Shown in pieces: positions 19,616-21,561 of a stretch of DNA of 32,000 nucleotides. How positions within the stretch are numbered: position 1 is the stretch's first letter; every line of letters starts with the position of its first letter. The notes below the pieces were generated by a model. It was not told the origin of the DNA. It worked only from the letters and a program-made list of their open reading frames with translations, and did not search any database. The position numbers were made by a program, and so were the translations under genes. The DNA is taken from contig JBBISB010000001.1 of NCBI GenBank assembly GCA_037441475.1, forward strand, positions 186,418 through 218,417. Reading direction: 5' to 3'. This DNA comes from Candidatus Iainarchaeum sp. (lineage in GTDB: Archaea; Iainarchaeota; Iainarchaeia; Iainarchaeales; CSSED10-239).

Positions 19616-20682
19616 TGTTATTTAAGAGAGATAAAAAAGGAGCAGTATCATTATTTACTGGAATTGCAGTGTTATTTGTAAGTATTATATTTTTAGGAAT
19701 ATTTACTTATTTTGCAATGGGGTACTTTGGAGGACTTGAAGACTCTCAAAGAATGAAAAATAATAGAAATAGCTTATCTTTGATAAATGATATTCTTCTT
19801 GAAATTAAAAATTCAAGTAGTGAGAGTTATAAAACTATTAATCTTGATACAACAGACCCTATTACAATTGACCATAACACTAGTAAAATTACTTTAGTGC
19901 AAGAAATTAAAAATCAAAAAAGTATTGAAAAACTTAAAACAGACACTAAAATCGGAGCACTTACAATTAATAAAAAAGAAACTAGTTTAGTATATACTTT
20001 AGATTATAATGGGCAAATACTTTTTTTTAAAACAATAGATATTATGCCTGTTAAACAAAAAATAATTTTTGAAAAAATAAATGAAGTTAATGGATTACCA
20101 ATAATTTCTGTTAGCACAGAAGAACTTAGTTTTGAAGGTACTAAAATATATTCACCAATTGAAAATATGACATATACTTATGGAGAACCAATACTGTTAA
20201 AAGGAATTGTTACAAACACCATTCAAGAATATCAATGTAGTTGGGAATCAAATATTGATGGCTTAATTGCAGAACAATGTAATTACACTGTAGAAATTTT
20301 ATCCCAAGGGTATCACGAAATTACATTTACTGCTAAAAAAGAAGGAGCTACTATTGCTACAAAAAAATTAAATATCATAATAGGATCAACAATTGTTGTA
20401 CCTTTATTTTTGATAAATATTATTACTCCTTCAAATAATTATTCTGTAAATTACGGAGAGGAAATAAACTTTACTTCACAAGTAAGTAATCCTGTTGGAG
20501 CACATAGTTGTTTATGGACATCCTCTATTGATGGAAACTTAACAAGCAATTGCAACTTTTCAACAACAACTTTATCAGCTGGAAATCACACAATTACCTT
20601 AACTGTTACTGATCAAAATCAAACTATAGAAAATAGTATTTTAATTACTGTTATAAACCCTTATTTAATTTATTCATGGTGA
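19615..20682 (+). CDS. Pilin-like protein with class III signal peptide and two Ig/PKD-like repeats; ends at an in-frame TGA inside an RCC1 blade
   Basis: N-terminus MLFKRDKKG|AVSLFTGIAVLFVSIIFLGIF. Two homologous modules of about 80 aa (YGEPILLKG...CSWESNIDG...GYHEITFTA and YGEEINFTS...CLWTSSIDG...GNHTITLTV). The C-terminal YLIYSW matches the LY[AST]W strand of the downstream RCC1 repeats. Confidence 0.6.
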   Translation: MLFKRDKKGAVSLFTGIAVLFVSIIFLGIFTYFAMGYFGGLEDSQRMKNNRNSLSLINDILLEIKNSSSESYKTINLDTTDPITIDHNTSKITLVQEIKNQKSIEKLKTDTKIGALTINKKETSLVYTLDYNGQILFFKTIDIMPVKQKIIFEKINEVNGLPIISVSTEELSFEGTKIYSPIENMTYTYGEPILLKGIVTNTIQEYQCSWESNIDGLIAEQCNYTVEILSQGYHEITFTAKKEGATIATKKLNIIIGSTIVVPLFLINIITPSNNYSVNYGEEINFTSQVSNPVGAHSCLWTSSIDGNLTSNCNFSTTTLSAGNHTITLTVTDQNQTIENSILITVINPYLIYSW

Positions 20683-20763
20683 TCAAATAATTATGGTGCA
20701 ACAGGATTAAGAATAGATTCAGGAGATACAATTGTTCCGACACTAATAGATTCATTTACAGAC

Positions 20764-21561
20764 TTGGATACAATATCATCTAATGGATATTTTGCATTAG
20801 CAATTAGAAATGGAGAACTATATGCATGGGGAAGAAATGATTATGGACAATTAGGTTTTGAAGATACAAATAATAGAAGTGAACCTACAAAAGTAGGATT
20901 ATTTACAGACTGGGAAAAGGTATCTGCATCAGGGCATCATTCATTAGGAATTAGAAACGGAAGATTATATTCATGGGGTAGAAATATATATGGAGCAACA
21001 GGTCTTGGATTAGATACAGGTAATACATTAACCCCTACACAAATAGGCGCTTTTACAGATTGGAATTTTGTTTCAGGAAATGCAAATTTTTCATTAGCAA
21101 TTAGAAATGGACAACTTTATACATGGGGAAGAAATGATTATGGACAATTAGGTTTTTCAGATACAAATAATAGAACCAATCCAACTCAAGTTGGAACTGC
21201 ACAAGATTGGAATTTAGCACTTGCAGGGGGATTTAATTCTTTAGGATTAAGAAATGGAACACTTTATGCATGGGGAAGAAATAACTATGGGGTAACTGGA
21301 TTGAATACTACATCTGGAAACCCATTAACACCTACACAAGTAGGGTCATTTACTGATTGGCAAATTGTCGCACGAGATAATGCAAACTCATTAGGAATTA
21401 GAAATGGAAGACTTTATTCATGGGGAAGAAATGACTACGGCGTAACTGGACTAGGAATTTCCTCTGGTAACACATTGACTCCTACACAATTTGGAACTGC
21501 AGAAGATTGGGTAGATATTACTTTGGGAACTACATTCTCAATAGCAATTAAAAATAGTTAA
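20764..21561 (+). CDS. RCC1-repeat beta-propeller protein; probably the C-terminal part of the 19615 gene
   Basis: Five and a half repeats of about 50 aa of LY[AST]WGRN[DNI]YG[QAV][LT]G...P[TK][QK][VI]G...W...SL[AG]IRNG. It is in the same frame as 19615-20682, and the frame is open from 20683. The whole ORF has no ATG (only a TTG at 20764) and no signal peptide. Confidence 0.7.
   Translation: MDTISSNGYFALAIRNGELYAWGRNDYGQLGFEDTNNRSEPTKVGLFTDWEKVSASGHHSLGIRNGRLYSWGRNIYGATGLGLDTGNTLTPTQIGAFTDWNFVSGNANFSLAIRNGQLYTWGRNDYGQLGFSDTNNRTNPTQVGTAQDWNLALAGGFNSLGLRNGTLYAWGRNNYGVTGLNTTSGNPLTPTQVGSFTDWQIVARDNANSLGIRNGRLYSWGRNDYGVTGLGISSGNTLTPTQFGTAEDWVDITLGTTFSIAIKNS

Follow-up and report, generated by a model that had tools for sequence, protein, structure and literature searches.

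An in-frame TGA at an invariant glycine separates a pilin-type surface protein of Candidatus Iainarchaeum from its RCC1 propeller: a probable recent truncation

The stretch of DNA analysed here, hereafter the window, comprises 32,000 nucleotides (nt) from Candidatus Iainarchaeum sp. (assembly GCA_037441475.1, contig JBBISB010000001.1, positions 186,418 to 218,417 of the forward strand), and carries three pilin-like genes in a row. The third of them, gene 3, is the subject of this report. It encodes a pilin-type N-terminal domain and two PKD/Ig-like domains, followed in the same reading frame by an RCC1-like propeller, and the frame is broken once, by a TGA within the first propeller motif. In window coordinates, gene 3 consists of the following features:

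19615..20679, plus strand: 5' part of gene 3, 355 codons (open reading frame list and translation)
20680..20682, plus strand: TGA in frame, in place of the invariant Gly that opens no other stop in gene 3, first WG(R/S)N motif (sequence, blade alignment and homologue alignments)
20683..21561, plus strand: 3' part of gene 3, 292 stop-free codons and a TAA, covering the remainder of repeat 0 and RCC1 repeats 1-5
20662..21558, plus strand: complete RCC1-like propeller as assembled, six repeats (repeat families D1-D3, blade alignment and strand pattern of the model)

When the TGA is passed, positions 19615-21561 form a 648-codon frame in which the TGA at 20680-20682 is the sole interruption (context tta att tat tca tgg TGA tca aat aat tat ggt gca; local junction peptide ITVINPYLIYSW-stop-SNNYGATG). 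The codon differs from GGA by one G-to-T step at its first position. The two open reading frames (ORFs) concerned, 19615-20682 (355 amino acids, aa) and 20764-21561 (265 aa, TTG start), share a frame, with starts 1149 nt, or 383 codons, apart. A first-pass annotation made from the sequence alone had described the TGA as the lone break between them, in agreement with both the frame check and the 648-residue translation. We estimate about 8% stops per random codon at this base composition, which gives a 292-codon run without a stop a chance probability of about 1e-11, and the downstream frame is therefore real coding sequence. These 292 codons contain no ATG, and the earliest GTG or TTG is the TTG at 20764, codon 27. 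The downstream ORF has neither an ATG nor an export signal, as had been proposed.

The N-terminus of gene 3 is class-III-signal-like, reading MLFKRDKKG/AVSLFTGIAVLFVSIIFLGIF (the slash marks the putative cleavage site). The remainder of the 5' part contains an N-domain (residues ~4-170), PKD/Ig-like domains at residues ~178-260 and ~262-348, and, at its very end, the RCC1 strand LIYSW. Upstream of the stop, Pfam assigns residues 277-345 to PKD with E 5.6e-5, at a score (23.5 bits) equal to the cut-off. Past the stop, RCC1 (PF00415) is matched in 5 stretches with E 3.9e-49 and 165.4 bits (cut-off 21.7), and WD40_RLD (PF25390) with E 5.4e-53 and 181 bits (cut-off 150).

The TGA occupies a glycine position that is conserved both within the propeller and among its homologues. 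A blade-by-blade DNA alignment of the six repeats shows the codons of the WG motif to be TGG-GGA in four and TGG-GGT in one, with TGG-TGA in repeat 0. The repeats are ~147-150 nt long each, and the six arise from a duplicated 297-nt two-blade unit. When the junction region was aligned by tblastn with 160 loci, 145 alignments covered the site, and 130 of these have Gly opposite the TGA; the corresponding column (G12) is invariant Gly in a 49-sequence alignment. Furthermore, RCC1 homology in the tblastn alignments starts at query residues 89-91, ahead of the stop at query residue 95. Together with the Pfam matches, these alignments bear out the earlier description of a pilin-Ig-RCC1 gene split at the conserved Gly of its first blade motif.

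We modelled residues 345-648 (20647-21558) with AlphaFold2, placing a Gly at the TGA site. The resulting propeller has a predicted local distance difference test score (pLDDT) of 94.1 and a predicted template modelling score (pTM) of 0.91. It contains 23 strands of at least 3 residues; four blades list four strands, and one lists three plus a two-residue strand. In the last blade, three C-terminal strands are joined by the N-terminal strand YSWG as the fourth. The YSW(G) strand completes the last blade, and the sequence immediately ahead of the stop therefore codes for part of the propeller. According to the model, a product initiated at TTG 20764 would lack this pre-stop strand as well as the next one (model E9-12 and E28-33), which supports the proposal that the propeller of the downstream ORF is missing the strand encoded ahead of the stop.

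Using Foldseek, the model superposes on UVR8 (4dnv), HERC2 RLD2 (7q40) and RCC1 (1i2m) with template modelling (TM) scores, normalised to the query, of 0.87-0.91, and on RPGR with a score of about 0.9; for UVR8 the values are E 4.6e-25 and TM(query) 0.90. The gene 3 propeller shares the WG.N.YGQLG signature with the known RCC1-like domain (RLD) propellers, which include RCC1, UVR8, HERC1/HERC2 and RPGR as well as the bacterial surface proteins of the 'alpha-tubulin suppressor-like RCC1 family', and in both the N-terminal strand closes the last blade. In contrast to these, the gene 3 propeller belongs to an archaeon, follows a pilin-type N-terminus and PKD spacers, and is cut off by a stop. Solved RLD propellers have a canonical seven blades. 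Gene 3 has six repeats as assembled, modelled as six four-stranded blades, a count made uncertain by an exact 35-nt repeat and by the gap in GCA_964526055.1; a metagenomic homologue (L096) likewise has six RCC1 repeats. The RCC1 'head' presumably binds a ligand or a host.

One alternative, which we consider unlikely, is that the TGA arose as an error of consensus or assembly, or represents a minority allele in a metagenome-assembled genome, and that the cells carry an intact 648-codon gene with GGA at this position. The genome is indeed a metagenome assembly, the downstream frame shows no decay, and the RCC1 repeats are hard to assemble, with a 100-N gap, a 2-base difference and contig breaks at an exact 35-nt repeat present in two copies:

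20825..20859, plus strand: exact 35-nt repeat, copy 1
21122..21156, plus strand: exact 35-nt repeat, copy 2

However, the TGA lies in unique sequence, ~145 nt upstream of copy 1, and it is identical in three assemblies, namely the one studied here (G000), GCA_964526055.1 (L176) and the Logan contig SRR11582162_34415 (L177). The Logan contig, 2038 nt long and produced from SRR11582162 with a different assembler, is 100% identical to the window across 18817-20854. The points of difficulty are all downstream: the Logan contigs end at 20854 and resume at 21127, and GCA_964526055.1 has a 100-N gap after 21175 together with a 2-base switch to the repeat-1 variant (L176 positions 4543-4662), ~480 nt past the TGA. 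Because of the exact 35-mer and the gap, the number of 297-nt two-blade units, and hence a total of 6 or 8 blades, is not secure, and this uncertainty leaves the stop unaffected. Records from NCBI and Logan assemblies include a protein identical to the 355-aa product. Other single-stop genes were also found in a scan of the genome, so real pseudogenisation is common here. With three assemblies in agreement, the independent Logan contig among them, a pure assembly error, one of the possibilities raised by the first-pass annotation, is unlikely.

The relatives show what kind of gene occupies this slot. In a complete genome of the same genus (G003) the locus is collinear, with genes for a form-III-like RuBisCO, pilin-1 (802 aa), pilin-2 (176 aa), pilin-3, an HD protein and a Cas4-like nuclease. 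Gene 3 of G003 is a single unbroken 1102-aa ORF, and the HD gene follows 12 nt downstream, with no gene between. Its N-terminal 170 residues are 59% identical to those of gene 3 in the window and the two have PKD modules in common, while the C-terminal cargo is different. Across the same-genus orthologues, the N-domain is 52-59% identical to that of gene 3. In two genomes (G001 and G006) the orthologues stop after ~175 residues (172-178 aa), and in three others (G002, G004 and G005) they extend to nearly 1000 residues or more, or past the contig end, and carry other domains. Genus-wide, the C-terminal modules of gene 3 include LamG-like, PKD, Fn3-associated and Gly-rich ones, in proteins of ~175 to 1102 aa. 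This variation in length and cargo implies that the C-terminal modules are dispensable and freely exchanged across the genus, and it points to a rapid turnover of cargo at a locus that itself stays fixed.

Wherever else RCC1 modules occur in the genus, upstream domains precede them in one continuous frame, and the junction is of the same type. Indeed, two paralogues, G004:C88 (..INLPEYIYAWGKNNFGQLG.. and ...YIINLPEYIYAWGKNNFGQLG...) and G002:C40 (..PPEYEYYLYGWGSNYYG.. and ...NYVPPEYEYYLYGWGSNYYG...), join upstream domains to RCC1 without interruption and carry GG(N) at the junction corresponding to the TGA. A TGA in G002:C40 was considered as a possible conserved in-frame TGA and was rejected, as it is the true stop of that gene, after ..GLKNS. 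We searched for orthologues of the RCC1 part in 40 relatives, in genome and metagenome contigs, in a set of 5.8 billion proteins and by exact-sequence look-ups, and found no match to it above ~50% identity; the 355-aa product forms a cluster of one. The comparison of orthologous loci for GGA or TGA, which the first-pass annotation had called for, is thus informative in part: the G003 gene is unbroken and the paralogues have GG(N), but a close RCC1-bearing orthologue is lacking.

These observations also bear on whether the locus might code for two proteins independently, a 355-aa pilin-PKD protein and, from TTG 20764, a 265-aa RCC1 protein, which we regard as hardly credible. ORF callers can list both. 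Nevertheless, the second ORF is without any ATG and without a signal peptide, its TTG start is inside blade 0 and removes two strands, RCC1 homology begins before the stop, and synteny with G003 shows one gene in the slot, not the two separate genes at orthologous loci that would have spoken for this arrangement. A look-up of the 265-residue translation found no exact record, with a query that began with L rather than M. The annotation of GCA_964526055.1, the assembly with the 100-N gap, lists just an 86-aa fragment at the 3' end.

The position of the TGA at an invariant Gly raises a further alternative, that TGA is read as glycine, fully or depending on context, as in NCBI code 25 of SR1/Gracilibacteria. 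Another adhesin in the genome also has an in-frame TGA at a Gly position, according to the genome scan. We nevertheless consider the idea extremely improbable. In this genome (0.77 Mb, 28% G+C, 89.5% complete), the 549 ORFs of at least 150 aa end with TAA in 360 cases, TAG in 111 and TGA in 78 (14%), and the open in-frame extension after the stop has a median of 8 codons for TGA, TAA and TAG alike. Five tightly packed same-frame gene pairs have the arrangement G-TGA-N6-ATG (G000:C1 601753, 37118, 407828, 346372 and 110365), where the TGA, 6 nt ahead of the following start, apparently also serves as a GTGA Shine-Dalgarno-like element. From its presence in these packed pairs and from stop usage, TGA is clearly a working terminator. 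Within the window, code 25 fuses just one real gene, gene 3 itself, and in-frame TAA and TAG cases exist in the genome too. Genome-wide, TGA joins two frames of at least 100 codons at ten places. Nine of these, the five packed pairs included, have a start within 26 codons (ATG, at one place another codon), which leaves the gene 3 TGA as the sole such junction without a nearby start. A genome-wide codon-score scan was noisy, since antisense frames score well, and was used only to compare TGA with TAA and TAG.

Nor did the searches reveal any recoding machinery. ARAGORN, run with and without introns, found 36 tRNAs without introns plus an intron-bearing tRNA-Trp(CCA), and no tRNA with anticodon UCA and no tRNA for selenocysteine (Sec) in the genome; a search for SepSecS gave no match in this 89.5% complete genome. 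The organism is archaeal and has a gene for an aRF1 (eRF1-type) release factor, a family that among the controls matched only archaeal genomes. As separate observations, the aRF1 (eRF1_2) match is split into two pieces ~1.3 kb apart in one 854-codon frame (G000:C1:374810-376498, L190/L191), which suggests an intein or other large insertion, and ARAGORN places a tRNA-Ile(UAU) at G000:C1:255853-255928 beside a tRNA-Ile(GAU) and reports two tRNA-His(GUG) genes. An anticodon UAU in tRNA-Ile is an uncommon way of reading AUA.

A TGA at a glycine codon is, furthermore, what ordinary mutation would produce in such a genome. The low G+C content suggests that GC-to-AT changes predominate, and by genome codon usage GGA accounts for 74% and TGG for 22% of the GC-to-AT routes to TGA, compared with a GGA share of 15% among all single-step routes. 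With GGA holding 74% of the GC-to-AT routes, a TGA at Gly is expected from ordinary nonsense mutation where such changes predominate, and is not evidence for a TGA-to-Gly code. Gene 3 itself contains 44 GGA codons and 148 GC-to-AT one-step nonsense routes, so that a hit on one of them is unremarkable. The genome scan also returned several TAA cases among in-frame stops, in addition to the TGA in the other adhesin.

Read-through of the UGA, leaky or programmed, would yield mostly the 355-aa form and a few per cent of a long RCC1-tipped form, at a fixed ratio of shaft to tip. This alternative, which had been raised from the sequence, is consistent with the perfectly intact 292-codon downstream frame, with the location of the stop just past a domain boundary, where both products would fold apart from the first blade, and with UGA being generally the leakiest stop. 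We nevertheless consider it quite improbable. No read-through context or structure was found downstream of the TGA: the 124 nt from the stop onward have a minimum free energy of -18.6 kcal/mol, compared with an average of -17.95 for shuffled sequences (z = -0.22), and no Rfam family, SECIS included, matched at E<=1 across 19000-23000. Neither a suppressor tRNA nor Sec machinery was found. Near-cognate decoding of UGA inserts Trp, Cys or Arg, and each of these residues would replace a Gly that is invariant and lies in a tight turn. The stop is not conserved, the syntenic orthologue and the RCC1 paralogues of the genus being unbroken, and single-stop genes with other stop codons also occur in the genome. 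Going by two published accounts, recoding in archaea is established only for Sec, pyrrolysine (Pyl) and one -1 frameshift (PMC8037382; PMC8211752); if true, read-through here would be the first non-Sec, non-Pyl read-through described in archaea.

A precedent for such an arrangement exists in phage Q-beta, where the leaky UGA of the coat gene yields the A1 read-through protein. In both A1 and gene 3, a structural subunit is followed by a UGA and then by a C-terminal extension that would lie outermost in the assembly. In contrast to A1, the gene 3 stop replaces a structural Gly inside the fold of the extension and is not placed between domains that evolved for it. It is very doubtful that a low level of natural read-through makes a few full-length pilin-PKD-RCC1 proteins among many short shaft subunits and serves, in the manner of A1, as a stoichiometry device. 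Re-initiation after the stop was also considered and rejected, as only one ATG (20693) lies close by, in another frame, and the ORF that it begins has 5 codons (MVQQD, then stop). Within 20677-20697, the G-to-T change also created a Shine-Dalgarno-like GGTGATC, 8 nt before this ATG, probably by coincidence.

We therefore favour, with a probability of roughly three in four, a recent GGA-to-TGA nonsense mutation that truncated a modular pilin-type surface protein and left behind an undecayed RCC1 relic. A single G-to-T change would have converted GGA, the Gly codon of the first WG motif, to TGA, and translation would now end about ten codons after the second PKD domain. The product would be a 355-aa pilin-PKD protein that lacks the propeller. 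What is left of RCC1, 292 codons, would not be makeable alone, having no start and no signal peptide and missing one to two propeller strands, and would persist as a relic that has as yet acquired no second lesion. Indeed, the 876 nt contain zero second lesions where ~8% random stops are expected, which suggests that the event is recent. The 355-aa protein is probably still usable, since the same-genus orthologues include shorter natural forms (~175 aa). Of the three explanations offered by the first-pass annotation, a recent nonsense mutation is thus upheld by the lone lesion and the intact relatives, whereas neither a phase-off variant, for which there is no repeat tract or switch, nor programmed read-through is supported.

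Several observations weigh against a recent truncation. The downstream frame is wholly intact, which would equally fit continued use, and the stop coincides neatly with a domain boundary, as might be expected if the short form were selected for. The support for the TGA is at the level of assemblies, and with no close RCC1-headed orthologue in the search described above the mutation cannot be dated or polarised against a sister strain. In addition, no pilin family model in Pfam or NCBIfam matches gene 3. The recent truncation resembles the young single-hit pseudogenes or truncation alleles of reduced AT-rich genomes, which, like gene 3, show one nonsense change of the kind that GC-to-AT pressure favours, an intact frame, intact relatives and a fast-evolving accessory gene. 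It differs from them in that the gene 3 product has a clean end beyond a folded domain and probably still functions, so that 'truncation allele' may fit better than 'dead gene'. As a phenomenon, the young truncation of a variable surface gene by a single hit is ordinary.

The pilin-type assignment of gene 3 draws on its N-terminus and on its neighbours, which include the following:

17369..19051, plus strand: gene 1, 560 aa, a pilin-like N-terminus (..NQKG/ASEVLSYILVIFIVIVVVGL..) followed by Fn3_assoc/CHB_HEX_C and DUF285 (PARCEL) repeats
19088..19615, plus strand: gene 2, pilin-like, 175 aa (..TEKG/AANLISYFLYIFVSIVVL..), its stop overlapping the start of gene 3
28615..29463, minus strand: Peptidase_A24 (class III signal / prepilin peptidase) homologue (Pfam PF01478, E 3.1e-11)

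Gene 3 begins with a short charged leader, a G/A cleavage motif and a hydrophobic helix of ~20 residues (MLFKRDKKG/AVSLFTGIAVLFVSIIFLGIFTYF), and both other pilin-like genes, as well as the orthologues in G003, show this pattern of leader, motif and helix too. In gene 1, Pfam matches DUF285 (E 5.8e-42) and Fn3_assoc (E 4.3e-16), with DUF7289 below threshold (17.2 vs 27 bits); no Pfam or NCBIfam family was matched in gene 2. The Peptidase_A24 homologue is, from its family and location, likely the processing enzyme for the three pilin-like proteins. Five loci of the T2SSE-family ATPase are present in the genome, four of them intact. Taken together, the KKG/AVS motif and helix, three such genes in a row, the peptidase and the four intact ATPases suggest that gene 3 is pilin-type, and from the N-terminal motif and this context we infer that its product is a pilin or an adhesin. 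The fifth T2SSE locus (G000:C2:11100-11708, L194) carries an in-frame TAG. A decay of the whole pilus system was considered and rejected, with four of these ATPases intact and one broken.

Proteins with a class III signal and Ig-fold or adhesin-like cargo are known from archaeal type IV filament (T4F) loci, which one survey found to be scarce in DPANN-type archaea (PMC13705601). Gene 3 has the basic leader with KG/A and the hydrophobic helix in common with the archaeal T4F pilin-like proteins that carry adhesin, Ig-fold or sugar-binding cargo. In contrast to T4F loci, no ATPase or platform gene adjoins the gene 3 operon. In the literature searched we found no description of RCC1 cargo on a pilin-type protein. 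Elsewhere in the window, an 840-aa ORF (1266-3788, plus strand) is predicted to contain intein splicing (Pfam E 1.3e-32) and LAGLIDADG homing-endonuclease (E 5.3e-13) domains.

For annotation, the two ORFs should be treated as one interrupted gene, a pseudogene or a truncated allele. Nor should the presence of TGA in frame at Gly positions of this genome be counted as evidence for a code in which TGA means Gly; as a rule of thumb, where GC-to-AT changes predominate, about three quarters of new TGA nonsense codons would replace a GGA glycine. For the biology of these archaea, the comparison within the genus indicates that the third pilin-type member of the operon swaps its cargo between species, with none in some and LamG/PKD/Gly-rich, Fn3-like or RCC1 modules in others. 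Such swapping would be expected of host- or surface-recognition proteins in small, possibly symbiotic archaea, and the loss of the RCC1 head by a point mutation may represent one snapshot of this cargo turnover.

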